DNA of 64,000 nt, taken from Candidatus Multivoradales bacterium (lineage in GTDB: Bacteria > Acidobacteriota > Thermoanaerobaculia > Multivoradales > Multivoraceae). Below are positions 1 to 16,774 of this stretch, one piece after another (the stretch's first letter is position 1; each line of letters opens with the position of its first letter). The stretch spans positions 3,488,850-3,552,849 of the forward strand of contig CBDCWI010000002.1 of the NCBI GenBank assembly GCA_965223325.1. Direction: 5' to 3'. Made by a program: the position numbers and the translations under genes. Under the pieces are notes generated by a model. The model made no database searches and was not told where the DNA came from. It worked only from the letters and a program-made list of their open reading frames with translations.

Positions 1-729
1 GGGCTGCTCCTCATCGCTGTCTTCCTTGAGAGTGGCGTAGTAAGCACTTGGCCACACTGACAACTCGATGGCTGCGATGTCTACGACTCTCGGGAGTTCG
101 TAGAGCGAGTACGCCCCCGCCGGGTCCGATGTCTGCGACACCGCAACGCACAGAAGCTCTTGCTCACGGCGATTATCCCAGTCCGGAATGTCGATGTAGT
201 TGAAACCGGCATGTCCAAGAACCCAGCGATCGGCCATCGGGTCCCAATTCACCGTTGGTTCCCCTGCAGAGGTCGTGCAAGGACCGGTCGCCCAGAGATC
301 ACTCAGCGAAAAGGGCCCGACGAGAAGCTCCCCCGTCTTCGAATAGATCGCGACGCCTTCTGGGCTGACTACCTGAACGTAGTGGTTAGGCCCGACGTCA
401 CCCCGAGGGTCGGGCGTAGGGCACTCTACGCATGTCCCCTCCGCGCTCATCCCCTCCCACGAAAAGGGTCGGCCTGCGCGGACTCCGCGGCGGGCAGTTT
501 CGAAGTCCGGTTCGAGATCAACGAGGGGCGAACCGGCACCTTCAAGCGCGCGCATCGACGGGAGCGTGTCCACGCGCGGGCTGACCTTAACGGAAAGCAG
601 AAATCCACCGCACGGGTGAGGGTGGTTTGCCGATGCACTGCCGACGGCCAAAGCCAGCGCGAGGATGGCCGCGCCCGATGTCCGCCCGGTTCGGGAAGAG
701 GGCTGACGCTTGGAGAGAAACCGTGACAT
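1..729 (-). CDS. Hypothetical secreted protein, 5' part (gene runs off the left edge). It is not in the ORF track because there is no in-window stop.
   Basis: My translation of the minus strand from ATG at 729-727 reads MSRFLSKRQPSSRTGRTSGAAILALALAVGSASANHPHP... as one uninterrupted frame down to position 1. The N-terminus is signal-peptide-like (basic n-region, Ala/Leu h-region). The residue composition is protein-like, unlike the Arg-rich plus-strand ORF 160..726 covering the same DNA. Confidence 0.5.
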   Translation of the reverse strand, partial: MSRFLSKRQPSSRTGRTSGAAILALALAVGSASANHPHPCGGFLLSVKVSPRVDTLPSMRALEGAGSPLVDLEPDFETARRGVRAGRPFSWEGMSAEGTCVECPTPDPRGDVGPNHYVQVVSPEGVAIYSKTGELLVGPFSLSDLWATGPCTTSAGEPTVNWDPMADRWVLGHAGFNYIDIPDWDNRREQELLCVAVSQTSDPAGAYSLYELPRVVDIAAIELSVWPSAYYATLKEDSDEEQP

Positions 730-1020
730 AAAGGCCGAAAAGGATGAGAACCCAAGGGCAAGGGGACCCGCCTGGTCGCCCGCTAGAGTTTATCAGGCCA
801 CTGTTCTCTCAACACCGCCGGTTAGAGGCAGGCGTACGGTCCAGCCGATCCGTCGTCCAACTCAAGCCCCCCTGGGTACCGGCAGGGTTGTTCCACCTTG
901 GGCACCCGACGAGCGCTGCCGCCGGTCTCAGTTACTCGCGTCTTCTCTCGCTGGGCTTTTTCGAGCACCCGAGGCCTAGCTCATGACGACACCCCCGGGC
1001 GTCTATTGACTCCCTACGAA

Positions 1021-2430
1021 CTAGTCCTCGTCGACGTAGCCGAGGGCTTCGAGCTGCTCGCGGACCTCGTCGGGCATGGTTGCGACATCGCGGAGCTTCG
1101 AAGCCAAGCCGCGGCGCTCCTTTCGCAGTCGATCAATCGTCTCTAGGTGCTCTGCGGCACCAGCAGGTTCCCCGGAGACGAGTTCACCGTTCAAGAGGTT
1201 GTAGGTCGTCTTCGAGCCAACGCGGGTGTCCCACACCACGTGTCGCGGTTCCGGACTGAGGGAGGACACTGCCATCAGGCCGCCGTAGGAGGAGTAGGAA
1301 ACCCTTGTGCCCCCCTGGCGTGATGTCCCATCACAGATCGAACGAACCCCGCACTGTCCATCCCAGGCCTTCTCGGCAGGCACCTCCGCGATCGCCGCCA
1401 GAACGGGCGCGATGTCGACCTGCGGACACAGGCCATCTTCTACAACGCCCGTCGGCTCCCACGAACGGTGATAGAGAAGCGGAACTTTGACCAGTTCTGG
1501 CTCGAGACCTTTTCCGTGCCCCAAGCGACCGTGCTCCAGGAAAAGGTCGCCGTGGTCTCCGGTGACGACAACAACGAAGCGCTCGCTAGAGGTCTCAGCG
1601 AGCTGCACAACCCTTTCGACAAGGGAGTCCACGTAGCGTATCCCCGCATCGTAGAGGTCAACCATGTATTGGAGGTCGGTCTCTGAAACGCGCTCCGGCG
1701 GAACACCGTTGCGATAGCGATCCACCCCCTTCGCACCGACAAACATCTCGCGAAACTCGCGCGGCGGCCAGTAGGGATTGTGTACATCCATGAAGTGGAG
1801 GTACGCGAACCAGGGTCGCTGGGGCGGATCTCGCTGCGTCCAGGCCTCGAAGGCTCGCACGACCGTTTCACCCTTCGCATATGCGATCTTCTTGCGGCGC
1901 CCCTCCTCACGATGGCTGTCGAGCTCCAGCTGGGCAACCTCGAACAGCTCCGGGTAGCCCGAGCCGTCGGCCATGTGAGGGTTCGTCAGCACCGCGAACG
2001 TCTCGTAGCCTGCGCTGGCGAATGCTCCGGGGAGGGTCTCGGAGATCGGGACTAAGGACGAACGCCGCTCGGTGCCTGAGGAGGTGGCGACCACCGGGGG
2101 AGGCGACATACTGGTCAGCAGGGCAGCGGTCGAGAGGAAGGTCTGAGAGCCATGGGAGAGCCCGACGCGACAGCTGACGCTCCGTGAGGCTAGCTGGTCG
2201 AGGAAGGGGCTGACGGGACGCTGATACCCGGCAAACCCGAGGTGGTCGCCACGAAGCGCATCGATATTGATGAGGAGGATGTTCGGGGCCCTCTTCTCGC
2301 CCGTTTCTTCGCCCACTGGGTTCGAAGCAGACGAATGGCCAGCTGGGTCCGGAGAGCACGAGCCGAGCGTGACCGCCGCAGAGACGACCAGGACAACGAG
2401 AATCTCGTGGCATCCGCGGGGAATGGTCAT
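1021..2430 (-). CDS. Sulfatase-family (alkaline-phosphatase superfamily) protein with N-terminal signal peptide; possible lipoprotein. Paralog 1.
   Basis: ORF 1021..2469, probable start at internal ATG 2430 (MTIPRGCHEILVVLVVSAAVTLGSCS...). The metal-site block NILLINIDALRGDHLGFAGY and the rest of the sequence are typical of the sulfatase / phosphotransferase fold. No canonical C-x-P-x-R formylglycine motif was seen. The C-terminal tail is ...EQLEALGYVDED. Confidence 0.7.
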   Translation of the reverse strand: MTIPRGCHEILVVLVVSAAVTLGSCSPDPAGHSSASNPVGEETGEKRAPNILLINIDALRGDHLGFAGYQRPVSPFLDQLASRSVSCRVGLSHGSQTFLSTAALLTSMSPPPVVATSSGTERRSSLVPISETLPGAFASAGYETFAVLTNPHMADGSGYPELFEVAQLELDSHREEGRRKKIAYAKGETVVRAFEAWTQRDPPQRPWFAYLHFMDVHNPYWPPREFREMFVGAKGVDRYRNGVPPERVSETDLQYMVDLYDAGIRYVDSLVERVVQLAETSSERFVVVVTGDHGDLFLEHGRLGHGKGLEPELVKVPLLYHRSWEPTGVVEDGLCPQVDIAPVLAAIAEVPAEKAWDGQCGVRSICDGTSRQGGTRVSYSSYGGLMAVSSLSPEPRHVVWDTRVGSKTTYNLLNGELVSGEPAGAAEHLETIDRLRKERRGLASKLRDVATMPDEVREQLEALGYVDED

Positions 2431-2641
2431 TTGGCTGGGCTCCGGCTCGTTGGTTTCGCAAAGAGGCAAGAACCTAACAGCTCGAAGCTACACGTTCCAA
2501 GCCGAAGCGCCCGAGTCTGAGGAGCCCTGCCAATGGAGTACCGCAGCTGGCAGCACACGGGTACAAACGGAAGGGCCACCCGAGGGTGGCCCTTTCTATT
2601 GCCAGACTTCGCAGTCTCGCGTTCTTCTGGCTAGGCGCTGC

Positions 2642-3289
2642 TCAGGGGCTGAGCGTGCGAAACGACACGAAATCGTCGAAGTAGTGTGAGCCGACCGTAC
2701 CGGCATCCACACTGCTCGCCAAGAGACCGACCTTCACATTCTTGACGCCCTGGGAGGCGGTGGGGATTTCCGTCTGCTCCCGGATGGTCGCATCGTCGAC
2801 CATGATCCGCAGCAGACCATCCGTGGCACCGGCTGACGCTGCCGCGCGGAACTCGATCGTGATCTTGTGGGCCTGGTTCGGCTGCAGGTCGATGACGCCA
2901 GTCTTGCGGCGCTTGGTTCCGCCCGTCGCCTGGTACAGGGCGCGGATGTCGTAGCCGCTGCCGCCAGCCTTGCGGCGGAGCTGAGCCGAAACCACGCGAT
3001 TCCCGTTGTTGGAGTCGTTCGTGGTGCTGAAGATGATGTGACGGGCGCCGATGTCCATCGTCATGTTGTTGACGTTGAACATGAAGGAGGCGGAGTAGAC
3101 CGGCTCCTGGGCCGGGGTGTCGTCCTGGACGAAAGCATTCGTCTGGGATCCGTCTGCGGTTACCTCGAGGCCGAAGTTCCCGGCCATTGCAGCGTTGCCG
3201 TTGACGTCAAGGGACGAGTCCGCAACTGCTGCCCCGGCAAGACAGAGCAGGCCCGAAAGGGCGATGGTCATAGTTCTCTGAAGTTTCAC
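2642..3289 (-). CDS. Secreted hypothetical protein (Asn/Thr/Gly-rich; fold prediction is inference)
   Basis: ORF 2642..3340. AGGAGA lies 6 nt upstream of GTG at 3289, giving VKLQRTMTIALSGLLCLAGAAVA... as a signal peptide. The gene sits 10 bp downstream of the anti-sigma gene on the same strand. I recognised no catalytic motif. Confidence 0.55.
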   Translation of the reverse strand: MKLQRTMTIALSGLLCLAGAAVADSSLDVNGNAAMAGNFGLEVTADGSQTNAFVQDDTPAQEPVYSASFMFNVNNMTMDIGARHIIFSTTNDSNNGNRVVSAQLRRKAGGSGYDIRALYQATGGTKRRKTGVIDLQPNQAHKITIEFRAAASAGATDGLLRIMVDDATIREQTEIPTASQGVKNVKVGLLASSVDAGTVGSHYFDDFVSFRTLSP

Positions 3290-3350
3290 GTTTCTTCTCC
3301 TTTGGGCTTCAGCCCGGGCGGGCCGGGTCCTTGAATCCATTGTTGGGTTG

Positions 3351-3842
3351 TTACTGTTGGGTTGAGTCTTCCGAGATCGTCAGCCGCGCCGCCGGGCCCA
3401 GCTCGCCGTCTTCGAAGTCAAAGGTCGAGAGTGGCACCGCCTCTACTCCTGCAACTGTTGGGTTGGCATCCGGACCCCCTGCCTCTATCAGCGAATCAAA
3501 CGCACCTCCCGCGGCGGCGAGAATGCCTGAGAGTGCGAGCACACAGGCTGCTGCGGCCAGAGGAATTCTGGCCTTGGCCGTCACCTCGGCGGATGGAGCC
3601 ACGGTCGCCAGGTCCCAACTCACGGCTTCGACCAGCTCGCGGCATTCGGCACAGGAAGCAACGTGCCGCTCCACTGATTCAGAAACACATGATTTGCCAT
3701 TTCTTGCGCCGAGTGCGTGCTCGACAAGGGCGTCTGCATCAGGATGCTGGTCGAGCGCCTTGAGCACCTGAGCGAAGGCCGTCTCGGCACCTTGGGGGAC
3801 AGCGTTTGCGGCTTTGTCGAAGTCTAGGGTTGAGTGACTCAT
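3351..3842 (-). CDS. Putative anti-sigma factor (zinc-binding H-x3-C-x2-C motif, single TM helix)
   Basis: HVASCAECREL matches the ZAS-type HxxxCxxC motif. There is one hydrophobic segment IPLAAAACVLALSGILAAAGGAF. The gene lies directly downstream of an ECF sigma gene on the same strand. Confidence 0.55.
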   Translation of the reverse strand: MSHSTLDFDKAANAVPQGAETAFAQVLKALDQHPDADALVEHALGARNGKSCVSESVERHVASCAECRELVEAVSWDLATVAPSAEVTAKARIPLAAAACVLALSGILAAAGGAFDSLIEAGGPDANPTVAGVEAVPLSTFDFEDGELGPAARLTISEDSTQQ

Positions 3843-4010
3843 CTGGGGTTCCTCTGGCCTCGGGCTCCCTGCCCGGTTGCTCTATAGTCGAGCGCCCGTG
3901 GCTTTTGTTACCGACTTTCTTGAGGTGCCCACAAGACGTCCCGATTCTCGGCCTTCCCCGTGCGAGAAGCGTAGCCGCCGGTCGACCCCCCGGTCGTTGC
4001 CGCTCTCAGA

Positions 4011-4559
4011 CTACTTGGCGCCTGGACCCTCTTCAAACAATCGCGCCCGTACCCCGAGGGCAGCCTTCCGACACCGGCTGATTCGCACCCTCAATGCCCC
4101 CTCTTTGATGCCCAGGGCGGCTGCCATCTGCGTGTAGTCCTGACCCAGCGCGACCCGGCGCAGCAGCTCCAGGCACTCGGGCTTCAGCTCCTCCTCCAGC
4201 GCCCGGAGCAGGCGGTCGGTGTCGGCGGCACCGAGTTCTGCGGCTCGAGGGTCCTCGCCCGCGATCTCCGTTGCCTCATCACCAAGGGACTCGCTGGGCC
4301 TGCGACCCCGAAGCCTCACGCGGTCGATGCACTTGTAGTGCGCGATGCGGCGGGCGTAGCTCGCCAAGGTGCTTTCGCCGCGAAAGCGACCCTCTCGAAC
4401 CGCAATCAGTAGGGCCGAAAGGGAGTCCTGCTCGACGTCTTCGAGGTCGCCTGCGGCAAGGCTGTGGGCGGAGAAGGCGACGCGGATGGCTCGCCGTACC
4501 GCCGCGACAACCTCGGCGTCACCGGCGAGGAAGCGCGCGCCGTCGCTCTTCTCGGTCAT
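4011..4559 (-). CDS. ECF-type RNA polymerase sigma factor (sigma-70 regions 2 and 4)
   Basis: ORF 4011..4721. The real start is most likely ATG 4559 (MTEKSDGARFL...), which forms an ATGA overlap with the stop (4558-4556) of the upstream 1080-aa gene. Region 2 is LLIAVREGRFRGESTLASYARRIAHYKCIDRVR. The region-4 HTH is LGQDYTQMAAALGIKEGALRVRISRCRKAL. Confidence 0.8.
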   Translation of the reverse strand: MTEKSDGARFLAGDAEVVAAVRRAIRVAFSAHSLAAGDLEDVEQDSLSALLIAVREGRFRGESTLASYARRIAHYKCIDRVRLRGRRPSESLGDEATEIAGEDPRAAELGAADTDRLLRALEEELKPECLELLRRVALGQDYTQMAAALGIKEGALRVRISRCRKAALGVRARLFEEGPGAK

Positions 4560-7500
4560 GCACTTGCCCGGCCCGCAGCCCTCGACTGCTGTCCGAGGAC
4601 GCGGAGTTCGGAGGCTGCGGCTGCTTCGATGGTGAAGCGGGCAGCGATTCGCTGCCCGCGAGCTGCGAGTAGCTTGCGCAGGTCCCCGTCCTCGACCAGG
4701 CGCTGGAGGGCAGACAGGCAAGCACTCCGATCGGCTGTGTCAACGACCAGAGCGGTGTCGCCATCGATCGCGTACTCACTGGCGCCGCCAGCCTTCGGAA
4801 CGATGACGGCGCAGCCGCAGGCCATCGCCTCGAGGCCAGTGCGGCCGAAAGCCTGGTAGTGCGAAAGGTCGACGAACACGTCGGAGCGTTGCAGGAGCCC
4901 GGCCACGCCCTCCCGTGTCATAACGCCGCATCGTTCGAATGTGCCGTCGGTAGCAGCCTCATAGATCGGGTCATCGACTGGCAAGCCAAACGTCAGAACT
5001 TCTACGCCCGAAGGGTACTCGCGAGCGATCGCGCGAAGTACCTCGAGCGTGCCTTCGGCGTTGCGCCGCGGAGTGCTCGGCCGGAGCATCGCAGCAACAC
5101 GGACCGCTCCGGTGGCTGGCTCGCGGCCCCGGGGGTTGTAGACCGAGTGGTCGATGCTGGGCGTCACCTTGGCCACCGGAACGCCATGCTCCTCGAACAC
5201 CTTGGCGCGAATCCAATCGGTCTTGGCGAACAGCTGCGACCGCGGGACCCGAGAGTAGGACAGCCGCGCCTCGCGCTCGAGATTCGGATCGTGCGCCACG
5301 ATCCTCGGTTCGTAGTCCTGGACGTAGTACCCCAAACCGAGGTCAGGAAAGCTGCGCGACAGCTGCTCGAGGAGCTTGACGGAGGTAAAAATCGTGGCGA
5401 CGGCATGGGTCGCCTGGCGTGCGAGCCGGGCCAACTCATCAATCCCCTGAAAGCCGACGAAAAGGTCCGCCGGAACAGATGGGTAGTTGTCGAGGAACCA
5501 ATGGCGGTGCTGCTTGGGAACCGCGATGCGTGCCGCAGCCCCTAGCGCGCGCATGCCCAGCGCCTCCTGAACGATCGAATGCACGCCGCCGCCGCCGCGA
5601 CTGACCGGAAGAATAAAGAGAACCGACATGGCCTCGGGATCTGGGTCGACACCTGCTCCGGCGATGGGCGCTGCACGATCGATTCGGCCGAGGGCCTCCT
5701 GAATCCGAGCTCGCACCTTCGCCATCTCAGGGTTGTGGCGCATGAACTCGCTCGCCTGCTTGATCACCTCTGCGCCGTGCTTCTCGTCGAAGGCCTGACG
5801 GCTGCTGCTGGCGAGCTCGCGCCGGCGCTCGTGGCTGTAGCTCTTCGATTTGGCGTGGAAGACGAAGACGTCGTCGACCACCGCAAGTTCGAATCCTTCT
5901 GCCCGCGCGCGCAGGCAGTAGTCGTTCTCTTCGCCGTAGCCACGCGGGAAGGACTCTTCGTCGAGCAACCCGATCCGGTCGAGAAGCTCGCGCCGGATCA
6001 TGAAGCAGAAGCCGTTGAGAAACGGCATACGCGGCCGTGCACGGGCCGACGCCCGCTTCACCACGTCGTCCATTCCGTTGACACCGAGACCCTCGGGCAA
6101 CTCGTTGACGGCCCAGTCGCCCGCTTCGTCGAAGCGCTTGGGTACCGACTGGTAGCTCGCCGCGTTCGACAGTGGCCCGACGACGCCCAGCTTGCCGCTC
6201 GAAGCACCGGCTTCCACCATCCGATCGAGCCAGCCGAAAGGCACAACGACGTCGCTGTTGAGCAATACCACCCAGTCGGCCTCGCTCGCTCGCAGGCCAC
6301 GATTAGCGGCCCGGGTGTAGCCGGTGGCCCGGTCGCTTCGCAGCAGTTGGCTCTCGTGCCTGGTTGCAAAACCTCGCAGGTACTCGGCCGTTTCCATGTC
6401 CGAACCGTCATCGACGATATAGAGCGTGTACTGTCGCCGGGTGTTGCGAACCAGCGATTCGAGACAAGCTGTCACATCCTCGAGGGCGTTGTGAACACAT
6501 ACCACGACGTCGACGGTGAGTTCGTCGACCGACCTGGCGCCGGCGATGCTTTCCGGCGCAACTCTGGGCCCGGGAGCAGTGGCTGTAGATGTGGATGTGG
6601 ATGTGGATGTGGATGCGGGCGCCACGCTCAGCGGGCGAAAAAGGCCTTGGACCCGATTGCGAAGGCCCCTGAGCTTCCCGATCAGAAGCCAGCTGCGCGA
6701 CTCGTAGATCGCCCGCAGCTGCTGCTCGAGCCGGCGCTCTTTCCCCTTTCTGCGCTCATAGGCTTTTGAGTACTCGCTCTTCTCGCGACGCACCTTGCGA
6801 AGCGCGCGGGCAGCGAGCCGGTGACGGTCGATGTACTCCTCGAGTTCGCGCTTCTGTCTCTGGAGCTTCTCGTTGGCCGCGGCCAGGGCGGCTCTGAGTT
6901 CGCGCTCGTCCTCTCGGCGGCTGGCAAGCTCGTCGGCCAGCTGTCGCAAGATGCGCCGCATATCGGTATCGCGAACCGCTATCTCCTTGGAGTCGGCCGC
7001 CATCTGCTCGCGCCGCTGCCGTTCGCGCTGACGGCCGATTTCAACCCGAATCCTTTCGGACTCGATGGTTTCGATAATCGCCTCGCGCGTTTCCCTGCTA
7101 TCGAGCCGTTCGGCAAAGGCTGCCAGTGCCGGCGATGTACGAAGGCGCTCCTCGGGCAGGAGGACGGCGAGGCCATGAAGGCCACGCACGACCCGGAACC
7201 GAATGTCGCACTGTGTTCCCGCCAGGAAATCCTCGACCGCGGTGAGGACACCGTTCCTCTCGCCGCCTTCGACTGCCGCGTGGTGAAGGTGACCGTTAAG
7301 ACCGCCGGCATCAACCAGTAAGGGATGGTCCGGGTGCACACCGCGCCGGGCAAAGGGTTGCCTGTCGAGTTCTGGAATGCGGTCGGGCTCGTAGTAGAGG
7401 TCTCGCCGCCCGTAGGGCCAGCCGACGTCATGGAGCAAGACCACCGGAAACGGAACGCCTGCGCGCTGGCTGATCTCGTGCAGAAGGCGAAGCTCGTGAA

Positions 7501-7798
7501 AGACGGTGTACCAGTTGTGGTCTCCGTCGACCAGCGCCACGTCACACGCCGGGAGACCGGGAAGGACGTCGTGGCTCGTGCCTCGGTGAAAAACGAGCGC
7601 CGGGCCCCACTCCTGCTGCCACTCGTCGACGTCGTACTTCGGCAGCGGGTCGATGACGTGCAGCGTTGCGGCGTTCTGGCGGCAGTATCCGAGCAGCTCC
7701 CGCGTTTGCAGACCGCCGTCAGAACCGATTTCAACCAGAACTTTGGGCGACGTCGCCTCGAGCAGCGGCTCGGTGACGGTCTTCCAGAACCTTCTCAT
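4556..7798 (-). CDS. Multidomain glycan synthase with five segments in one chain. Residues ~15-215: class I SAM-dependent (O-)methyltransferase-like domain. Residues ~232-385: coiled coil. Residues 396-406: (ST)n linker. Residues ~428-650: GT2 glycosyltransferase. Residues ~725-1070: GT4 glycosyltransferase. Domain labels rest on motif reading only.
   Basis: Methyltransferase-like N-terminus: VLVEIGSDGG...HVIDP...DVALVDGDH...LLHDVGWPYG. Coiled coil: a heptad-like charged stretch REAIIETIESERIRVEIGRQRERQRREQ...LQRQKRELEEYIDRHRLAARALRKVRREKSEY...LEQQLRAIYESRS. Linker: STSTSTSTSTA. GT2: VVVCVHNALEDV...YIVDDGSD...LLNSDVVV...GFCFMIRRELLDRIG...GEENDYCLRA. GT4: GRTGLEAMACGCAVIV...E-rich C-terminal block. 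The gene lies in the same locus as wzm/wzt. Confidence 0.85.
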   Translation of the reverse strand: MRRFWKTVTEPLLEATSPKVLVEIGSDGGLQTRELLGYCRQNAATLHVIDPLPKYDVDEWQQEWGPALVFHRGTSHDVLPGLPACDVALVDGDHNWYTVFHELRLLHEISQRAGVPFPVVLLHDVGWPYGRRDLYYEPDRIPELDRQPFARRGVHPDHPLLVDAGGLNGHLHHAAVEGGERNGVLTAVEDFLAGTQCDIRFRVVRGLHGLAVLLPEERLRTSPALAAFAERLDSRETREAIIETIESERIRVEIGRQRERQRREQMAADSKEIAVRDTDMRRILRQLADELASRREDERELRAALAAANEKLQRQKRELEEYIDRHRLAARALRKVRREKSEYSKAYERRKGKERRLEQQLRAIYESRSWLLIGKLRGLRNRVQGLFRPLSVAPASTSTSTSTSTATAPGPRVAPESIAGARSVDELTVDVVVCVHNALEDVTACLESLVRNTRRQYTLYIVDDGSDMETAEYLRGFATRHESQLLRSDRATGYTRAANRGLRASEADWVVLLNSDVVVPFGWLDRMVEAGASSGKLGVVGPLSNAASYQSVPKRFDEAGDWAVNELPEGLGVNGMDDVVKRASARARPRMPFLNGFCFMIRRELLDRIGLLDEESFPRGYGEENDYCLRARAEGFELAVVDDVFVFHAKSKSYSHERRRELASSSRQAFDEKHGAEVIKQASEFMRHNPEMAKVRARIQEALGRIDRAAPIAGAGVDPDPEAMSVLFILPVSRGGGGVHSIVQEALGMRALGAAARIAVPKQHRHWFLDNYPSVPADLFVGFQGIDELARLARQATHAVATIFTSVKLLEQLSRSFPDLGLGYYVQDYEPRIVAHDPNLEREARLSYSRVPRSQLFAKTDWIRAKVFEEHGVPVAKVTPSIDHSVYNPRGREPATGAVRVAAMLRPSTPRRNAEGTLEVLRAIAREYPSGVEVLTFGLPVDDPIYEAATDGTFERCGVMTREGVAGLLQRSDVFVDLSHYQAFGRTGLEAMACGCAVIVPKAGGASEYAIDGDTALVVDTADRSACLSALQRLVEDGDLRKLLAARGQRIAARFTIEAAAASELRVLGQQSRAAGRASA
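6585..6614. repeat. Hexanucleotide microsatellite (GTGGAT)n, about 4-5 units. It lies inside the synthase gene and encodes the (ST)n linker.
   Basis: Plus strand reads gtagat gtggat gtggat gtggat gtggat. The minus-strand reading ACATCC repeats gives TSTSTS. The repeat is in frame, since 6 is a multiple of 3. Confidence 0.85.
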
Positions 7799-7807
7799 GC
7801 CACGGTT

Positions 7808-9265
7808 CTACTCGACATAGCCGAGCGCCTCGAGTTCGCGGCGCTCCTCTTCGGAGTAGTCGCGTCCTGTATTGTCGCGGACCGTCACCGACGGCTTCCC
7901 CATTTCTTGATGGATGAACGCGAGGTCGCGCTTGAAAGCTGTTTCGAGATCTTGATCCCCTCCGGGGAGTCCCAGTAGTTGCTGACCATCCATGTGCGCC
8001 AGTTGTGAGGCATGGGGAACCTCATACTGGAAAATCACTTGCCGATCCTCGCGCAGCAGCGTGACTCCCGAAACCCAGGTCGGGTCGTGCCGAACATGCT
8101 CGGAGATCGCGAAAGGGGGATCTCCGTTGTCAGGGGTCGGTGGAGCCAGGAAGAGAGCCGTTTGGTCGACACCGTCGAGACCATCCGGAACTTCTATGTC
8201 GGCAAGGGTTCCGAGGGTGGGGAACAGATCGATCTGCTCGATGATGGTCTCCTCGAATCGCGGCCCGGCGCCCATGTTTCGAGCCCGAAGCGCCACGGGC
8301 AAGCGCACGACCAGGGGTATGCGCACGACTTCTTGGTGAAGTGAATGGCCGTGCGCCCAGCCACCGCGGTCATAGAGCTCTTCGCCGTGATCGGCCGTCA
8401 CGATGATCAGAAAGTCGTCGAACTGCCCGGCGTCCCGCAACGTTTCGAAGAGGTGCGCAACATGGTCACCGTCGAAATAGGCGAGTTCTGTGTCATAAAG
8501 CGCCCGCGCCTCTTCAATGTCAGCGGGAGTGAGATCGCTCCGCTTCTTGTAGGTGAGCACGCTGAAGTCGACCGTGCTGTCGGTCGTCGGAAAACGGTCC
8601 CGGTAATGCGCGGCCTTGCCCTTCTTGATCACGTAAGGGTCGTGCGGCCCGATGAAGTGAACGTAAGCGAAAACCTTGTCGGCTTCGTCGAGGTCGCTGA
8701 ACCACTTTCGAAAGTGGCGTGCCGCTGGCTTGAGGCGGCCGTAGACTTCGAACCCTCGGCCGAAGCCTTGTTGTTCCGAGATGTGCGAGTTTTCGACAAA
8801 GCCAGCGGTCCTCCAGCCCGCATCTGTGAACGCCTGGCCAAGGCTCGGCACGTCGCTCGGAAAGCTCACCGTGCGCTCCTCTTTCGTGCCATCAGGAAGC
8901 ACCATGTGCCGGCCGACGGTGACGCCGTGGTGGCGCGGGTAGAGCCCCGAAAAAAGCGAAGCGACCGAGGGCTTGGTCCAGTTCGCCTGGGCAAATGCGC
9001 GCGTAAAGACGACTCCCTCGGCTGCCAACGCGTCGATTGTCGGAGTGGTTGGCCGCGGATAGCCATACACGCCGAAGTGATCTGGCCGCGCGCAGTCGAT
9101 CGACACCAGGAGGATTTTCTCGACCGGGCTCTCGATTTGGGCAGCCGGCTCTACCATCCCCCGCCCTTCTCCCGCAGGCGGCGCCGGCGAGCAGGCCAGC
9201 GGGAGCGAGGCCATCGCAACCAACAGGCCAGTGGACCGCGGGCGGCTGAAGAAGCGGGGGATCAC
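7808..9265 (-). CDS. Sulfatase-family (alkaline-phosphatase superfamily) protein with N-terminal signal peptide. Paralog 2.
   Basis: GTG start at 9265 gives MIPRFFSRPRSTGLLVAMASLPLACS. The block KILLVSIDCARPDHFGVYGYPRPTTPTIDALAAEG is sulfatase-fold like. Overall architecture and length match paralog 1. The C-terminal tail ...RELEALGYVE is nearly identical to paralog 1. Confidence 0.7.
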   Translation of the reverse strand: MIPRFFSRPRSTGLLVAMASLPLACSPAPPAGEGRGMVEPAAQIESPVEKILLVSIDCARPDHFGVYGYPRPTTPTIDALAAEGVVFTRAFAQANWTKPSVASLFSGLYPRHHGVTVGRHMVLPDGTKEERTVSFPSDVPSLGQAFTDAGWRTAGFVENSHISEQQGFGRGFEVYGRLKPAARHFRKWFSDLDEADKVFAYVHFIGPHDPYVIKKGKAAHYRDRFPTTDSTVDFSVLTYKKRSDLTPADIEEARALYDTELAYFDGDHVAHLFETLRDAGQFDDFLIIVTADHGEELYDRGGWAHGHSLHQEVVRIPLVVRLPVALRARNMGAGPRFEETIIEQIDLFPTLGTLADIEVPDGLDGVDQTALFLAPPTPDNGDPPFAISEHVRHDPTWVSGVTLLREDRQVIFQYEVPHASQLAHMDGQQLLGLPGGDQDLETAFKRDLAFIHQEMGKPSVTVRDNTGRDYSEEERRELEALGYVE

Positions 9266-9348
9266 GGGGGTCCTATCGGGACGTTTGCCCGATGCATTGG
9301 GGGCGTCTTGACGGATTCTGGATGGAAGCAGCAGGGCCAGGACTGTGG

Positions 9349-10665
9349 CTAGCCAGCCGAAAGCAAGGAAAAATACTGCGCCGCCATGCTAGCGCAGTCC
9401 TCCAGTTCGATGCGCTGAACTCGCTCGACGCCAGTCAGCCACTTCTCCCGATTGCCAACAAGCGACTTGATCTGTGCAAGCACATCCTCAGGAGCCGTTG
9501 GGGATACCGTCCACCCTCCGCCGGTTTCGATGATGCGTTCACCGACCGCCCCACGATCACTGGCGAGCACGGGGACGCCGAGGGCTAAGACTTCTGTCAG
9601 TGTGTGGCTCCAGGTTTCGGACCAGATGGGGAGAAGAATCGCCAGGCTGGGCTGAATCCGCTCCACCAGCCCGGGAAGTTCTGTCGGCGCATAGGGCCCG
9701 TGCTCCACCATAACGCCATGGGCGGCGTAGCGGCTGAGCTCTTCACAGTGCGGGCCGAGGTGGTGAAGAACCAGCTTCGGGCCGCCGCGCAGGCTTTCCT
9801 CTAGAACCGCCGCCAACTCGTTGCTGCCCTTGTGTCGATCGAGCTTCCCTAGGGTCACGATCCGGATGGTCTCGCCCGCTACCGGTGGCGCCGCGAGATC
9901 GTGGCGCTCGAGATCGCGGCCATGCGGAATCCGGTGGATACGATCGGCGAGCGACGGCAGGCTGCGGGCAAGAATCTCTTGCGACGACCATGAGGTCACA
10001 ACAACCGCCGAAACCTGCGCGAGGGCTTCCTCTACTTCCTGGACCCACTGTGCCCGGTAGCCCGACTTGAGAACCGGCAACCCTTCGAGCCAGGGCACCG
10101 GAAGTTGGCACTGGCCTCGCCCTTCGGTGCACTGACCACCGCAATCCCTGGCCTGGTCGTCGAGCAATACGAAGCTCGGACACACCAGATAGTGGTCGTG
10201 GGCCGACACGACGACGCGCACCCCGCGCTCGGCGCACAGGTCGAGCAGGTCGAAGGTGTGCGCGAGCAGGTGCCTGAGGTGCACCGCGTTGGGCCTTGTG
10301 GCATCGAGAACCCCACGGTAGAGCTCGCGAAAATCGGCGCGGCGATGGTCCGTCGCCTGCCAGGGTCGTCGATGGTGGAAGGCTCGATCAACCGCGCGAC
10401 CCTTACTGTCGGAGCCTTCGAGGACCATGCGAAAGGGGTCGGCCCGCAACACTGAAGCGTCGAGTCTCGTTCCCAGTGCGGCCAACAGGTCGCGGCTGGT
10501 TCTGTCGACCCCACCCGGCGCATCGTGGAGAACGGTGAGCACGCGCAGCGCATCCTTCTCGGCCCCAACCATCTGTGGCCGGAAATCGCGCTCTCGGCCA
10601 AGGAGCGTCTCGCGCAGCCTGCGCGCAAAGCGGTGCCGGCGACTTCCCCAGGCGAGCAGGTCCAC
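9349..10665 (-). CDS. GT4-family (group 1) glycosyltransferase
   Basis: LRVLTVLHDAPGGVDR N-terminus. GT4-type C-terminal half (...LGPHCEELSRYAAHGVMVEHGPYAPTELPGLV..., E-x7-E-like region). The start may instead be ATG 10572 (MVGAEKDALRVLTVL). Confidence 0.75.
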   Translation of the reverse strand: MDLLAWGSRRHRFARRLRETLLGRERDFRPQMVGAEKDALRVLTVLHDAPGGVDRTSRDLLAALGTRLDASVLRADPFRMVLEGSDSKGRAVDRAFHHRRPWQATDHRRADFRELYRGVLDATRPNAVHLRHLLAHTFDLLDLCAERGVRVVVSAHDHYLVCPSFVLLDDQARDCGGQCTEGRGQCQLPVPWLEGLPVLKSGYRAQWVQEVEEALAQVSAVVVTSWSSQEILARSLPSLADRIHRIPHGRDLERHDLAAPPVAGETIRIVTLGKLDRHKGSNELAAVLEESLRGGPKLVLHHLGPHCEELSRYAAHGVMVEHGPYAPTELPGLVERIQPSLAILLPIWSETWSHTLTEVLALGVPVLASDRGAVGERIIETGGGWTVSPTAPEDVLAQIKSLVGNREKWLTGVERVQRIELEDCASMAAQYFSLLSAG

Positions 10666-10666
10666 G

Positions 10667-11512
10667 CTAGTGCCCGGAGAGTTGGGTCTGAAGGTGGGCG
10701 CGCAGCCCTGCGAGGGGGTCGGCTTCGAGGAACTGCGAGACGCTTCCCAGGTAGTCCGGGTGCCGCACTTTCAGGACCCTCAGGCCGCGCCACAACAACC
10801 AGCGCTTCTTCCAACCGATCGAGCGCGACCCATGGTGGAAGACATAGACCGAGTCAGCGAGGACATGACGCATCCCGAGCGCGGTCGCTCGCACGCAGAA
10901 ATCGTTCTCTTCGCCCGCACCCTCCGGAAACGCCTTCTCGTCAAAGCTACCCACTGCCGCGAGCGCCGCTCGGCGCACGAAGAGACAGAAGCCGTGGCCG
11001 GTGGGGACTTCGGGAGAAAGCCCTGGGCTCCACTTCGCCACCAACGCCGCCATGCGCGCGTCGTCTATCGAAATGTTCGGAGCCGGCCCGTCGTAGGGCA
11101 CCGAAAAGGGGCCGGCGTTGTTCGACAGCGGGGTGACGGTAGCGATCTTCGGATCGGTCGCAGCCACCGCAACGATTCCGGCCAGCCACCCCTTCGTTAC
11201 CCGAGTGTCGCTGTTGAGCAGCACCACATCGCGGTCGCGAGCGAGGGCGCATCCTGCATTGATGGTGGCGGTATAGCCACGCCGCTGCGGATGAATGTGG
11301 AGCGCCCAGCCTGGGTTGCGGCGCCTGGCTTCTTCGAGTTGTGGTCGCGTCGAGTCATCGCGGCTCGCATCGTCGATGAGAAGAACCTGCTCGCCCTCGG
11401 CATGGCGTTCGAGCGCAGCGATACACTCCGCCACAACCCCCGGGGCGCCGTGGACTGGTACGACCACCGTCGTGTTGGCTACAGATGGGCTGCCTGATGA
11501 ATCTGAGGGCAT
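10667..11512 (-). CDS. GT2-family glycosyltransferase
   Basis: ORF 10667..11941. I trimmed the start to ATG 11512 (MPSDSSGSPSVANTTVVVPVHGAP...) because the longer N-terminus overlaps wzm and is low-complexity. GT2 motifs: LLIDDASRD, LLNSDTRV, GHGFCLFVRRAAL, EENDFCVRA. Confidence 0.7.
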   Translation of the reverse strand: MPSDSSGSPSVANTTVVVPVHGAPGVVAECIAALERHAEGEQVLLIDDASRDDSTRPQLEEARRRNPGWALHIHPQRRGYTATINAGCALARDRDVVLLNSDTRVTKGWLAGIVAVAATDPKIATVTPLSNNAGPFSVPYDGPAPNISIDDARMAALVAKWSPGLSPEVPTGHGFCLFVRRAALAAVGSFDEKAFPEGAGEENDFCVRATALGMRHVLADSVYVFHHGSRSIGWKKRWLLWRGLRVLKVRHPDYLGSVSQFLEADPLAGLRAHLQTQLSGH

Positions 11513-11515
11513 GGA

Positions 11516-12274
11516 GTGCGCCGCCTCACCGACCTGATCCTCTACAAGACCTACGCTGACCTGAAGTCGGAGTCCGAGCGGACCTACGTCGGTTTCCTGT
11601 GGTGGGCTATCGAACCGGTCATCGCGATGGCGGTGTACTACGTGGTCTTCGAGCTGGTCTTCCAGCGCGACGTGCCCAACTATGTCACCTTCCTTTTCGT
11701 GGGTCTGGTGCCGTGGCGCTGGTTCAACACCAGCGTGATGCGCGGGGCGAATTCGATCATCGGCGCGCGGGGCCTGATCCAGCAGGTTTACGTGCCGAAG
11801 GTGGTCTTCCCGCTGACCAACTTCGTCGTCGACACCATCAAGTTCCTCGTCGTTCTCCTCTTGGTGTTGATCGTCGTTCGCGTCGGCGACTTTCCCATCG
11901 GTGCGCCGTACCTCGCGTTTCCCGTGTTGCTTCTGGTCCAAGGATTGTTTGTTGTGTCGCTAACCCTCCTCATCGCCGCAGTCGCTCCCTTTCTTCCAGA
12001 CGTTCGGATCGTGATCGAGAACGTCATGCGGCTCCTTTTCTTCCTCTCCGGCGTCTTCTACGACATCGGCGACATGTCCCCCCGCATGCAGGCCTGGTTT
12101 CGAATCAACCCGATGACGACCATCATCGAGGCTTACCGCGACATCCTCATGCACGACGAATGGCCGGCTTTCGGAGCGCTGGCTGTCATCACCGTCTTGT
12201 CGCTCATGATTCTGGCGCTTGCTGTCTGGCTGCTCCGGCGGCTCGACTTCGCCTACGCCAAGATCGCCCTCTAG
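11516..12274 (+). CDS. wzm: ABC-2 type polysaccharide export permease (Wzm-like)
   Basis: LILYKTYADLKSESERTYVGFLWWAIEPVIAMAVYYVVF matches the conserved Wzm N-terminal block. About six hydrophobic segments. GTG start. The ATP-binding partner follows immediately. Confidence 0.8.
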   Translation: MRRLTDLILYKTYADLKSESERTYVGFLWWAIEPVIAMAVYYVVFELVFQRDVPNYVTFLFVGLVPWRWFNTSVMRGANSIIGARGLIQQVYVPKVVFPLTNFVVDTIKFLVVLLLVLIVVRVGDFPIGAPYLAFPVLLLVQGLFVVSLTLLIAAVAPFLPDVRIVIENVMRLLFFLSGVFYDIGDMSPRMQAWFRINPMTTIIEAYRDILMHDEWPAFGALAVITVLSLMILALAVWLLRRLDFAYAKIAL

Positions 12275-12290
12275 AGTGTCTGAATCCGTC

Positions 12291-13097
12291 ATGCCTGACA
12301 CCGAACTCAATGCGGACAGGGACTCCCCGGCGCCCGTGGTCGGCGAAACCCCTCACGGGCGGCCCATCCTGTCGCTCGAAGAAGTTGGCGTGTCGTATCG
12401 CCGCCGGCGGGGGCTCTTTTCGCGCCCGACCGATCTGTGGGCAGTGCGCTCAGTAACGATGGACATCTACGAAGGCGAAACCGTTGGCGTGATCGGCCGC
12501 AACGGTGCGGGCAAGAGCACTCTTCTCAAGGTGCTCGCCGGGATCATCAAGCCTGACCGCGGACACCTCGAGGTCCACACAGACCATCGGGTGTCCCTGT
12601 TGTCACTCCAGGTGGGTTTCTTGCAGTACCTGTCGGGGCGCGAGAACGTCTATCTGAGCGGTCTCCTGCTCGGTATGACCCGCCGCGAGCTCGACGCCAA
12701 GATCGACGACATCATCGCCTTCGCAGAGCTCGATCAGTTCATCGATGAACCGATTGGCACTTACTCGGCGGGCATGCGCGCGCGGCTCGGGTTCTCGACC
12801 GCCTTTCACGTCGATCCCGAGATCCTCCTGGTCGATGAGGTGCTGGGCGTCGGAGACGCCGAGTTCGTCGCCAAGTCACAAGCCGTTATGCGCGAGCGCA
12901 TCCGGTCCGATAAGACGGTGGTTCTGGTCTCGCACAGCGCCGCCTCGATCCGCGAGCTTTGCGATCGCGCCGTGTGGATCGACAAGGGGCGCTCTATGGC
13001 TTCTGGCCCAACCGAAGACGTTCTCGTCGCCTACATCGAGTCAACCAAGAAGGCCAAGACCAAGCCACCCGAAGAAGAAACCAAAGAACCGGGCTAG
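12291..13097 (+). CDS. wzt: ABC transporter ATP-binding protein (Wzt/KpsT-like; short form without C-terminal carbohydrate-binding domain)
   Basis: ATG 12291 (MPDTELNAD...) lies 17 nt after the wzm stop. Walker A GRNGAGKST, signature YSAGMRARLGF, Walker B ILLVDE. Only 268 aa, so there is no room for a C-terminal carbohydrate-binding module. Confidence 0.85.
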   Translation: MPDTELNADRDSPAPVVGETPHGRPILSLEEVGVSYRRRRGLFSRPTDLWAVRSVTMDIYEGETVGVIGRNGAGKSTLLKVLAGIIKPDRGHLEVHTDHRVSLLSLQVGFLQYLSGRENVYLSGLLLGMTRRELDAKIDDIIAFAELDQFIDEPIGTYSAGMRARLGFSTAFHVDPEILLVDEVLGVGDAEFVAKSQAVMRERIRSDKTVVLVSHSAASIRELCDRAVWIDKGRSMASGPTEDVLVAYIESTKKAKTKPPEEETKEPG

Positions 13098-13108
13098 AGG
13101 GTTGGGCA

Positions 13109-14128
13109 ATGCCTCGAAGTGAACGAGCGCCCGCGGCCGGCTGGACGATCGTCATCCCAACCCACGACACCCGAGAGCTCACCCTCGCGTGTCTCACAAG
13201 GGTTATGGAGGAAGCGCCTCAGGCGACCGTCGTCGTTGTCGACGATGGCAGTCGCGACGGCACGAGCGAAGCGATCGCGGTGGATTTTCCTTCTGCCCTG
13301 GTGCTGCGCAACGAAGAGGCACTTGGCTACACCGGTGCGGTGAACCGGGCGCTCGAGGGCGCCGCGGGTGACTACGTTCTGCTCCTGAATTCGGACGCCG
13401 TGCTGCTTTCTGGTTCGCTCGCCGCCGCTGCCGATGCCTTCGCGCGCGATCCTCGGCTGGGGATCATCGGCGCAGCACTCGAGAATGCCGATGGCAGCCC
13501 ACAGTGGAGCGGCGGCCGGAAGCCGTCAGCGCTGTGGCTATTCGCCCTCGCCTCTGGCCTAGCGAAGCGCCTTGGGCAGAGCGGGCTCTACCGAAGGCTT
13601 CGGCCGCCCGGCGGTTGGAAGCGTGAGGCTGTTCCTGGGGCCGATAAAACGGCGCCTGTCGACTGGGTCTCCGGGGCGGCGATGGCGATTCGCCAGCCGG
13701 TGCTCACGGCGCTTGGACCCCTTCCCGATGTCTACCGGTTCTTCTGCCAGGACCTCGAATACTGCCTTCGGGCCGGGGTCTCTGGTTGGCGTGTGGCCCT
13801 GGTGCCAGCGTTTCGCGTACGCCACCACCTCGGCGCCAGCTCGGTCGCCGAGCTCGCCTCGGATGGCGGTCTGACTGGCGAGCCTGATGAGGATGCTCTG
13901 CGCTTTTCGATCCTCCTCGAAGACCTGGTTCGCTTCTCTGGTCGTGACCTCGGAGGCCCCGGCCCGCAGCAGGCGCAGCGCGCGCTGGCCGCCGGCCTGC
14001 GTTTACGCGGGCTGCTCGAGGTGTTCTTGGGGCCGACTCCGGGGTTCGAGAACGCGGAACTGGATGTCATCGACCTGGCGTGGCGCCTCCGAACCATTGC
14101 CGAGAACGGCGCCGCGACAGGGAGCTGA
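13109..14128 (+). CDS. GT2-family glycosyltransferase
   Basis: ATG 13109 (MPRSERAPAAGWTIVIPTHD...). Motifs VVVVDDGSRDGT, LLLNSDAVL and a DxD-like region. Confidence 0.75.
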   Translation: MPRSERAPAAGWTIVIPTHDTRELTLACLTRVMEEAPQATVVVVDDGSRDGTSEAIAVDFPSALVLRNEEALGYTGAVNRALEGAAGDYVLLLNSDAVLLSGSLAAAADAFARDPRLGIIGAALENADGSPQWSGGRKPSALWLFALASGLAKRLGQSGLYRRLRPPGGWKREAVPGADKTAPVDWVSGAAMAIRQPVLTALGPLPDVYRFFCQDLEYCLRAGVSGWRVALVPAFRVRHHLGASSVAELASDGGLTGEPDEDALRFSILLEDLVRFSGRDLGGPGPQQAQRALAAGLRLRGLLEVFLGPTPGFENAELDVIDLAWRLRTIAENGAATGS

Positions 14129-14225
14129 CAGACGCCCCAGAGGCCTCTCAAGGTGGGCCTCGGCCGGAGAGCGGCCGGTCGCCTTCGGCTAGAATACATA
14201 TGGGAACGCGCGCCCGCGGCAATTC

Positions 14226-15248: not shown

Positions 15249-15280
15249 GAGGTCTGCGGCGCGCATTCAGACGCCAACAC

Positions 15281-16504: not shown

Positions 16505-16725
16505 GTCGACCCGCGGCCATCCTTGCGCACCCGCAAACTTTTTTTTGCTGACTCGGATCGCGTAAGTTTCCGTGCTGCGTCACCTTACGCCGAACGACAA
16601 GTGCACCTGGGATAATTTCTCTCTTCAAGACGTTCCCACGCCGTGCATCGCGTGGTATGTTGCCCCTCCTTCGCGGCGCATCCATTGATTCAGTTTGGGG
16701 AGTCGGTAGGTAACCGACAAAATCG

Positions 16726-16758: not shown

Positions 16759-16774
16759 GACAGGTGGGGTGTAC

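Follow-up and report, generated by a model that had tools for sequence, protein, structure and literature searches.

A glycan export locus in Candidatus Multivoradales with a recurrent cassette of ECF sigma factor, anti-sigma factor, jelly-roll protein and sulfatase-like proteins

Why should a locus for the synthesis and export of a surface glycan carry its own extracytoplasmic function (ECF) sigma factor and anti-sigma factor, together with two proteins of the sulfatase family? The question is raised by positions 1-14128 of a 64-kb stretch of DNA from Candidatus Multivoradales bacterium (contig CBDCWI010000002.1; the whole stretch of 64,000 nucleotides is called the window below). An earlier note on this DNA had read the region as an ABC-transporter-dependent glycan locus whose polymer is controlled by envelope stress and modified by the sulfatase-like enzymes. 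All of the genes that it named are present, and their order and strands are as claimed, as judged from the listing of open reading frames (ORFs), their translation, and scans with Pfam and NCBIfam, in which the matches in the locus were far above chance (for example, 6e-21 for the GT2 glycosyltransferase). The explanation that we favour, and hold to be moderately probable as a whole, combines a glycan module with a periplasmic cassette, in which a sigma/anti-sigma pair and a secreted jelly-roll protein (here called sec232) would be accompanied by two sulfatase-like proteins (S1 and S2) that act on phospho-esters.

Genes of this cassette (sigma, anti-sigma, sec232 and sulfatase-like) stand together in the window, in a sister strain (L003), and in the loci L088/89, L093, L094, L096, L108/109, L115 and L118. 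When the neighbourhoods of sec232 were counted in 20 non-redundant metagenome loci, each of at least 3.5 kb, a sulfatase-family ORF was beside sec232 in 16 of them and an ECF sigma gene in about half. By comparison, sec232 was beside generic sulfatase-like genes in none of 80 loci, and 80 more distant members of the sulfatase-like family, taken from genome representatives, had no glycan or cassette neighbours. RfbC-like synthases flank the cassette in six loci (the window, L003, L001, L088/89, L093 and L096) and wzm/wzt in four. In L001, which is from an unrelated organism, homologs of the S1 type, sec232, the S2 type, wzt, wzm, GT4 and the synthase are found together, and on a Planctomycetota contig (L006) an S2 homolog lies beside wzt and wzm. 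The comparative genomics that the earlier note proposed thus bears out the linkage of the cassette to glycan genes in related and unrelated loci, with the sulfatase-like genes tied to glycan loci in several organisms. It also supports a sigma/anti-sigma pair genuinely dedicated to this neighbourhood, since the same partner genes are conserved in many unrelated loci. Among the partners of the anti-sigma factor, and likewise among those of the sulfatase-like genes, the best conserved is sec232, which had been treated as incidental. The cassette, including a promoter motif described below, therefore recurs in environmental bacteria, in some 20 metagenomic loci and often by ABC-transporter glycan genes, and it gives a testable regulon and a candidate link from the status of the surface glycan to transcription.

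The sigma gene (4011-4559, minus strand) encodes a protein of 182 amino acids (aa) that matches TIGR02937 with 47.4 bits against a cut-off of 42.9, and its Pfam matches to Sigma70_r2 and Sigma70_r4_2 are below the gathering scores; it comprises sigma regions 2 and 4 only. Its ATG overlaps the TGA of the preceding synthase gene (ATGA), and the same 4-nt overlap is found in L003. Because of this overlap of start and stop codons, the sigma factor would be made together with the synthase. The anti-sigma factor (3351-3842, minus strand), which was recognized by reading of its sequence and by an alignment of six anti-sigma factors, has no Pfam match. It has a zinc-type H-x3-C-x2-C motif (HVASCAEC, aa 60-67) in the cytoplasmic part, a single transmembrane helix at the hydrophobic stretch IPLAAAACVLALSGILAAAGGAF, and a periplasmic tail of 47 aa, in which the sole conserved element is S-T-F-D-F-E-D-G-E-L (aa 139-148).

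The 168-bp gap between the sigma and anti-sigma genes contains a promoter-like motif of the ECF type, GTAAC-N16-CGACTA (3885-3911, minus strand; 43 nt upstream of the anti-sigma ATG), which reads GGTAACAA-N14-CGACTATA. It is the sole exact match in the 64 kb, and the shorter form GTAAC-N16-CGAC also occurs only once. With its 16-nt spacing kept, the motif recurs in four to five further, independent loci: immediately 5' of the anti-sigma gene in L003, L108/109, L115 and L118, and 5' of a sec232 homolog in L121. The intergenic DNA around it is not conserved (the gap of L003 is otherwise unalignable), and the sigma factors of the L108/109, L115, L118 and L121 loci are 36-41% identical to that of the window. 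This conservation suggests that GTAAC-N16-CGACTA is the predicted target promoter of the sigma factor itself. When the motif was relaxed (two mismatches, or GGAAC...CGTC), only chance-level matches were obtained elsewhere in the window, and therefore no further members of the regulon were assigned. An autoregulated promoter upstream of the sigma gene was not found; the sole site of the motif is located between the end of the sigma gene and the start of the anti-sigma gene. The sigma factor would thus drive the anti-sigma and sec232 genes, and read-through into S1 is probable; S1 may belong to the unit because no terminator-like site follows. The arrangement expected from this is a negative feedback without the usual positive autoregulation.

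These results do not fit two proposals of the earlier note. One or two transcription units would be too simple for the locus, given that a conserved promoter motif of the ECF type separates the anti-sigma gene from the sigma gene, and regulation of the polymer by envelope stress is not what the motif indicates, as it points to the unit of anti-sigma, sec232 and possibly S1, not to the synthesis genes. The description of the gaps as short or overlapping holds in part: the sigma and synthase genes overlap, but the minus-strand gaps are 83 bp between GT4 and S2, 168 bp between sigma and anti-sigma, 172 bp between sec232 and S1, and 291 bp between S1 and the last gene. Rfam and tRNA scans of the whole window gave no match, so the gaps are not explained by an RNA element. 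In a scan of positions 1-14300, no sigma-70 consensus promoter was detected, and the 13 terminator-like sites were about as many as expected by chance (9.5). A re-classification of ECF sigma factors (PMC7826278) contains no sulfatase or polysaccharide contexts and describes no such cassette, and the sigma factor could not be placed in a numbered ECF group. Each part of the pair is canonical, and the pair is unusual in the placement of the promoter, in its coupling to the synthase, and in an apparently split sensor domain.

The last of these features concerns sec232 (2642-3271, minus strand; 209 aa, although its ORF reaches 3340 and would give 232 aa). No match to sec232 was found in Pfam, NCBIfam or PDB sequences. 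Its 1389 representative homologs are either stand-alone proteins of about 210 aa or repeats in giant proteins. The AlphaFold2 (AF2) model is confident and all-beta (pLDDT 86.6), and shows a two-sheet beta-jelly roll. The closest structures are the uronate polysaccharide lyases (PL) of families PL20, PL7, PL14 and PL18, so that the fold may be called PL20/PL7-lyase-like or CBM4/9-like. A true polysaccharide lyase was considered and set aside: the fold agrees, but the PL7 motifs (R-x-E-L-R, Q-I-H and Y-F-K-A-G) are not recognizable among the conserved residues of the sec232 family, and only the description as lyase-like or glycan-binding was kept.

We built a hidden Markov model (HMM) of 205 positions from 19 complete domains of this kind. 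Against this model, the stand-alone sec232 proteins cover positions 20-200 only, the first beta-strand being absent, and eight of nine anti-sigma tails cover positions 1-16. All nine of the tails have the core motif, whose background frequency is 0.032 per 1000 aa. The tails are unalignable except for S-x-[FWM]-D-F-E-x-G, and the distant ones end in F-V-G-D-F-E-S-G-D-L-S-G-W. In giant multi-domain proteins, a similar peptide, [LI]-F-x-D-G-F-E-[ST]-G-x-L-S-x-W, precedes every sec232-like domain in cis. One member of the sec232 clade (P0331) retains the strand in cis, and the N-terminal strand in cis of a sec232 relative matches the start of the CBM_4_9 profile weakly (E 0.003). The most economical reading that these alignments suggest is strand complementation: the anti-sigma tail would end in the strand (DFExG..W) that is absent from sec232 and would supply strand 1 of the jelly roll, and sec232 would dock on the tail as a detachable glycan sensor. 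The fit of the tail (positions 1-16) to sec232 (20-200) would represent a new way of attaching a sensor to an anti-sigma factor and, more broadly, a docking system based on a peptide tag. Two observations weigh against this docking. The copy in the tail of the window's own anti-sigma factor is degenerate (DFEDGELG, without Trp), is the weakest, and gives no score against the domain HMM. In addition, several sec232 loci (L001, L090 and others) have neither an anti-sigma gene nor a tagged ORF upstream, and docking on an anti-sigma factor is therefore not general to the sec232 family.

The peptide is also found as a tag at the end of other secreted proteins. Among ORF segments from sec232 loci, 17 of 2333 carry it, versus 0 of 8333 control segments. 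It occurs as [LI]F-A-D-G/S-F-E-S/T-G-..-W, separated from the stop codon by a few residues, in unrelated secreted proteins, including a lactonase-like propeller protein (L003 20206-22374), an Ig/fn3 protein (L001 271-3012) and the products of L096 13085-13465, 15702-16985 and 18738-19862. Candidate docking peptides for sec232 are PLSTFDFEDGELGPAARL and LLADGFETGDVSQWT. The distribution of the tag suggests that these secreted proteins are a wider set of clients of the strand-less jelly roll. As a tentative extension, clearly less probable than the combined explanation, sec232 may be the 'catcher', lacking strand 1, in a split-domain docking system not described before, and may bind any protein that ends in [LI]F.DGFE[ST]G..S.W, whether an anti-sigma factor, a propeller enzyme or an Ig-domain protein encoded in the vicinity; it would gather them into a surface complex for glycan binding, processing and signalling, with the occupancy of the anti-sigma tail setting the activity of the sigma factor.

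A peptide at the extreme C-terminus of unrelated secreted proteins might instead be a signal for sorting or processing, or a functionless relic of gene fission, with no docking involved. The degenerate motif in the tail of the window would agree with either, and dedicated sorting systems are indeed nearby in some loci, as homologs of the S2 clade adjoin exosortase genes in L085-L087. We nevertheless find this rather improbable, for the peptide is not accompanied by a hydrophobic helix or a basic tail as in PEP-CTERM or LPXTG signals, wherever it occurs in cis it forms the N-terminal strand of a sec232-like domain, it is enriched only in loci that encode the strand-less sec232 (17 versus 0), and it is the sole conserved element of otherwise unalignable anti-sigma tails. 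The exosortase association itself was observed at L085 1105-2787 and L087 93-1544, where S2 homologs of 40-49% identity adjoin fused exosortase EpsH/EpsI genes, methyltransferases and GT2-GT4 fusions; the S2 clade is thus also linked to surface systems of the exosortase type.

Strand complementation, to return to it, has parallels in known systems. As in chaperone-usher pili (donor-strand complementation) and in cohesin-dockerin scaffolding, a short peptide of one protein would complete or plug the beta-sandwich of another, and several different proteins of one locus share a tag. There is no relation of sequence or fold to pilins or cohesins, and the interaction proposed here is deduced from sequence alone. 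For the sensor logic, RpoE-RseA-RseB of E. coli and SigI-RsgI of Clostridium thermocellum are models. In both, the outer part of a membrane anti-sigma factor is bound or fused to a protein that reads surface or external glycans, and the order of sigma, anti-sigma and periplasmic partner is the same; sec232 on the anti-sigma tail would resemble RseB bound to RseA, or the carbohydrate-binding modules that are fused to RsgI. The differences are as follows. The partner in the window is a PL7/PL20-like jelly roll, unlike RseB; it apparently supplies the body of a domain of which strand 1 is on the anti-sigma factor, unlike both RseA-RseB and RsgI, and the carbohydrate-binding module of RsgI is covalently attached. 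Furthermore, the sigma-dependent promoter of the window follows the sigma gene, whereas that of the RpoE and SigI systems precedes it.

What, then, do the two sulfatase-like proteins do beside this pair? S1 (1021-2469, minus strand) and S2 (7808-9265, minus strand) match Pfam Sulfatase with 4.9e-33 and 8.3e-44, respectively. They are paralogs, as the earlier note had it, but distant ones (25% identity, E 2e-33 by BLASTP), and as each has its own orthologs elsewhere, they represent two old subfamilies rather than recent duplicates. The orthologs of S1 (50% identity in L003, 36% in L001 and 35% in L088/89) all have the motif SHGS[QH]T. Both have the two-domain alkaline-phosphatase-superfamily fold and a metal site rich in Asp, as judged from their Pfam matches and a Foldseek search with the S2 model. 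The top Foldseek matches of S2 were two-domain sulfatases of the SulfAtlas S1 family (E 1e-21 to 1e-23, TM ~0.6) and phosphonate monoester hydrolases. Both S1 and S2 are probable lipoproteins, with the lipobox Cys in the family consensus and a leader of about 25-40 aa before the catalytic domain; the likely start of S1 is at 2430, with the lipobox L-G-S-C.

The absence of a C-x-P-x-R motif from both proteins was confirmed. The sulfatase signatures of SulfAtlas are [CS]-x-[PA]-x-R, in which Cys or Ser is converted to formylglycine and Arg is stabilising, and G-[YV]-x-[ST]-x2-[IVAS]-G-K with a sulfate-binding Lys (PMC5066984). At the formylglycine position, alignments place a Thr in both proteins (S2 T97-K-P-S-V, S1 T-F-L-S-T). 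For S2, the alignment to PDB 4uph puts Thr97 on the formylglycine position, with the Pro retained and Val in place of Arg. All 20 aligned family members have this Thr, which lies within the invariant motif N-W-T-K-P-S in S2 and within SHGSQTFLST in S1. The G-K pair of the second signature is also absent (S2 G-W-R-T-A-G-F-V-E-N, S1 G-Y-E-T-F-A-V-L-T-N). In the 20-sequence alignment, there is little or no variation at the metal ligands D57, D292 and H293 of S2 and at several His residues, and S1 retains the ligands as D..T..DH. Thr cannot give formylglycine, and PF00884 matches with Thr are not to be named sulfatases (PMC5066984). Read in this way, S1 and S2 are not formylglycine-dependent sulfatases, and their annotation as 'sulfatases' would be a clear case of a wrong kind of name in a polysaccharide cluster.

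Modification of the polymer after polymerisation, which the earlier note had proposed for the two enzymes, accordingly stands in one of its two forms. Because both proteins have Thr at the formylglycine position and lack the signature Arg and Lys, desulfation (or sulfation) is unsupported, and the alternative of a phospho-substituent remains plausible. S1 and S2 are plausibly catalytic, membrane-anchored phospho-ester enzymes of the periplasm that belong to the alkaline-phosphatase superfamily. Their nucleophile would be Thr, their Asp/Thr/Asp-His metal site is intact, and their most probable role would be to hydrolyse, or to transfer, a group that is phosphate-linked on the exported polymer or on the carrier of that polymer. 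With regard to the two domain annotations offered by the earlier note, the formylglycine motif is absent and the features of the LtaS or GacH type (LTA synthase or phosphoethanolamine transferase) were found in part. GacH adds glycerol phosphate to the exported rhamnose polysaccharide of streptococci and has the ligands E488, T530, D711 and H712 (bioRxiv 10.1101/337519). Like GacH, LtaS and EptA, the proteins of the window have an alkaline-phosphatase-superfamily fold, a Thr nucleophile and an acidic/Thr/Asp-His metal site (D57, T97 and D292-H293 in S2), the gene is within a glycan cluster, and the action is outside the cytoplasm. Some points argue against assigning them such a role: S1 and S2 are without an N-terminal multi-span membrane domain for access to a lipid donor, which all characterised phospho-substituent transferases with this fold have, they are closest by sequence and fold to sulfatases and phosphonate monoester hydrolases rather than to LtaS, and the AF2 model of S2 is only moderate (pLDDT 69.7).

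A further difference from GacH, LtaS and EptA is the family-specific end L-x-A-L-G-Y-[VI]-[ED] (LEALGYVDED in S1, at 1021-1050; LEALGYVE in S2, at 7808-7834). The aligned family members, including the distant ones without a cassette, all end in L-[RKE]-[AQS]-L-G-Y-[VIL]-[EDN], with L481, G482 and Y483 invariant; S1 and S2 would thus belong to a large family with a Thr nucleophile that ends in this way. The idea that this end is a docking peptide, or one recognized by PDZ domains, was dropped, as it is conserved throughout the family, members without the cassette included, and the S2 model is unreliable there.

Two other views of S1 and S2 were weighed against catalysis on phospho-esters. That they are genuine sulfatases, or housekeeping phosphatases for phosphate scavenging unrelated to the polymer, would be in line with the Pfam Sulfatase match and with NCBIfam matches to arylsulfatase and choline-sulfatase models, and sulfotransferase domains in related loci (L004 and the N-terminus of the L088 synthase) indicate sulfated glycans in the neighbourhood. 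We regard this as highly improbable. The NCBIfam matches are all far under the cut-offs (e.g. 94 versus 481 bits), and, with Thr for Cys or Ser, Val or Thr for Arg, and no Lys in the second signature, the active site of a sulfatase is not there, even though the two-domain fold and the calcium-site Asp residues are those of SulfAtlas S1 sulfatases. Against housekeeping phosphatases, the synteny with sec232, the sigma pair and the glycan genes is kept across unrelated organisms. The other view is that the two proteins are non-catalytic sensors of glycolipid or glycan, like the periplasmic domain of PbgA/YejM, which inform the anti-sigma factor. A weak NCBIfam match to LapC/YejM/PbgA (2.8e-5) and the constant company of the sigma/anti-sigma pair speak for such sensors, but the Thr nucleophile, the Asp and Asp-His ligands and several His residues are invariant family-wide, which argues for catalysis and makes the sensors very improbable.

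Sulfotransferases were observed in two related loci. At L088 17588-20648, the fused synthase has an N-terminal sulfotransferase domain in place of the methyltransferase, and in L004 sulfotransferases lie near the locus (13223-15742 and 19478-20230). Some relatives of the polymer of the window are probably sulfated, and the adjacent 'sulfatases' there also have Thr. A two-part methyltransferase-like protein of about 490 aa was found beside S2-type genes in several loci (L001 11422-12903, L088 14084-15544, L096 3465-4898, L092 2-892, L004 14303-15739 and L003 22665-23219); its counterpart in the window, if any, would lie beyond position 1.

The remaining genes form the glycan module. By their family assignments, Wzm, Wzt, three accessory GT2 and GT4 glycosyltransferases and one large fused polymerase make up the core of an ABC-transporter-dependent surface-glycan locus, as the earlier note had recognized. 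The permease gene wzm (11516-12274, plus strand) encodes an ABC-2 type permease that matches ABC2_membrane with 1.2e-14 as well as the galactan Wzm/RfbD and KpsM models. The product of wzt (12291-13097, plus strand; 268 aa) is the nucleotide-binding subunit, with matches to ABC_tran (5e-22), Wzt/RfbE (9.7e-56) and TagH (5e-49), of which the Wzt/RfbE match is nonetheless under the equivalog cut-off. The accessory glycosyltransferases beside them are GT2b (13109-14128, plus strand; 339 aa, Glycos_transf_2 5.1e-19), GT2a (10667-11512, minus strand; 281 aa, by Pfam, the gene call in L003 and tblastn) and GT4 (9349-10665, minus strand; 438 aa, by Pfam). The longest ORFs were too long for GT2a, wzt, GT2b, sigma and sec232, and the starts given here agree with independent gene calls in L003.

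The fused synthase (4556-7798, minus strand; 1080 aa) contains Methyltransf_24 (aa 22-124), GT2 (aa 430-656) and GT4 (aa 900-1065) domains by Pfam. A composition scan showed that about 150 aa (aa ~225-375) are almost free of Pro and Gly and rich in E, R, K, Q, A and L, which predicts a helical spacer, and an (ST)n linker follows it at aa 394-408. The architecture of methyltransferase, spacer, GT2 and GT4 is common to 968 database proteins from many phyla, some of them annotated 'O-antigen biosynthesis protein'. The synthase, S2 and sec232 each have an identical predicted protein in public sequence data. RfbC of Myxococcus xanthus goes with a methylated disaccharide O antigen; this link was not used as evidence.

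A model for the function of the synthase is ORF6 of Klebsiella pneumoniae O7, which has a methyltransferase, a coiled coil and two glycosyltransferase modules (PMC11231755). The synthase resembles O7 ORF6 and O12 WbbB in the order of its parts: first a modifying domain at the N-terminus, which in O7 is a methyltransferase, next a long spacer, predicted to be helical in the synthase, and last two glycosyltransferase modules. In all cases the genes are beside wzm/wzt and small accessory glycosyltransferases. ORF6 and WbbB, which serve ABC-transporter-dependent O antigens, are each terminator, coiled-coil ruler and polymerase in a single protein; the likeness rests on the order of domains, not on sequence similarity. 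The synthase of the window differs from ORF6 in having no room for its 223-aa kinase domain and in having GT2 and GT4 as C-terminal modules, where ORF6 has two GT2. On this model, GT2a, GT4 and GT2b would act on a lipid-linked primer, either building it or decorating it, the GT2 and GT4 domains of the 1080-aa enzyme would polymerise the repeat, and the methyltransferase domain, kept apart from the polymerase by the spacer of about 150 aa, would probably cap or mark the chain by O-methylation, by analogy with WbdD, WbbB and O7 ORF6; the polymer would then be exported by Wzm and Wzt.

This part of the explanation, too, meets counter-evidence. Wzt of the window consists of the nucleotide-binding domain only, without a C-terminal carbohydrate-binding module (268 aa, compared with 266 aa in L003 and 241 aa in L001), unlike the terminated systems of Klebsiella. 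As such a module is present on Wzt in all characterised terminator-dependent systems (PMC11231755), the chain-terminating role of the methyltransferase domain is uncertain. Moreover, Pfam scans of ORFs in the 64-kb window revealed neither a priming phosphoglycosyl transferase nor a ligase (WaaL) or other acceptor enzyme, although they may be encoded elsewhere, so the polymer could be an O antigen, a capsule or a glycoprotein glycan. In other respects the module is largely ordinary, an additional member of the well-understood ABC-transporter-dependent pathway.

Comparison with the sister strain divides the locus into a conserved and a variable arm. The L003 contig aligns by blastn with 95.4% DNA identity over window positions 9511-19272 and with 77.6% over 4047-7798, and is unalignable elsewhere. 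At the protein level, the genes from mutY to GT2a are 95-100% identical (GT2a 100%, GT2b 97%), and identity is 82% for GT4, 78% for the synthase, 86% for the sigma factor, 36% for the anti-sigma factor, 34% for sec232 and 50% for S1. The break between the conserved and variable parts, at about 9511, falls in the last ~55 codons of GT4, where a sliding comparison shows identity of 96-100% giving way to 24% at the C-terminal end. In L003, no S2 gene stands between GT4 and the synthase, so that two sulfatase-fold enzymes around the synthase, as the earlier note had pictured them, are a feature of the window but not of its sister strain. L003 carries a different sulfatase-like gene of 569 aa and an ISL3 transposase. 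This fall in identity, together with the absence of S2, shows that the accessory arm, from the 3' end of GT4 outward, is strain-variable, as in serotype-determining regions. Two further observations concern this arm. A terminator-like hairpin with a T tract (9375-9398, minus strand) lies within the final GT4 codons, bordering the segment that has S2 in the window and not in L003, and may mark the limit of an inserted cassette. The ISL3-family transposase of L003 (18731-20092) lies between the S1 ortholog and the gene of the tagged lactonase-like propeller.

The variability of the arm, with a transposase in that of L003, also bears on whether the cassette has anything to do with the polymer made here. 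It could be a unit for sensing and degrading an external acidic polysaccharide, in the style of polysaccharide utilisation, which adjoins the biosynthesis genes only because both share a variable region. The uronate lyases of PL20, PL7, PL14 and PL18 as the closest structures of sec232, the proximity of S2 to carbohydrate sulfatases by sequence and fold, and the lack of a synthase or wzm/wzt within reach in L090, L099, L102, L104, L110 and L118 would all be consistent with such a unit. We consider it unlikely, however. In two strains, translation of the sigma gene is coupled to that of the synthase gene, RfbC-like synthases (six loci) and wzm/wzt (four loci) flank the cassette, no transporter or sugar-catabolism genes accompany it in the window, and the catalytic motifs of PL7 are not recognizable in the sec232 family. 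A cassette connected to the glycan of the cell itself is therefore preferred.

Some features around the locus may be added. At the left end of the window, the 5' part of a gene for a secreted protein (1-729, minus strand, by six-frame translation) starts at 729 with the signal peptide MSRFLSKRQPSSRTGRTSGAAILALALAVGSASA, and its 3' end is beyond the window start; it has no Pfam family and no homolog among the fetched loci. The divergent start codons of GT2a and wzm are 3 bp apart (11512-11516), likewise in L003, and each promoter must therefore sit within the coding sequence of the neighbour. G+C is about 64% for the window and drops to 59% at 16-18 kb. A second ECF sigma gene (52183-52776) has strong Pfam matches and no GTAAC-N16-CGACTA nearby; downstream of it, an ORF of 222 aa without a family match (50896-51564) possibly encodes its anti-sigma factor. 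Directly after the locus, beyond mutY and a protein with two cyclic-nucleotide-binding stretches, dnaA, dnaN, recF, gyrB and gyrA are located at 16643-26367, which places the variable glycan locus within ~2.5 kb of the replication-origin gene set. Further on (31544-36619), genes for a type III polyketide synthase, an ICMT-family methyltransferase, an AMP-binding enzyme and an FAD monooxygenase are consecutive, as in clusters for phenolic lipids (alkylresorcinol or alkylquinone).

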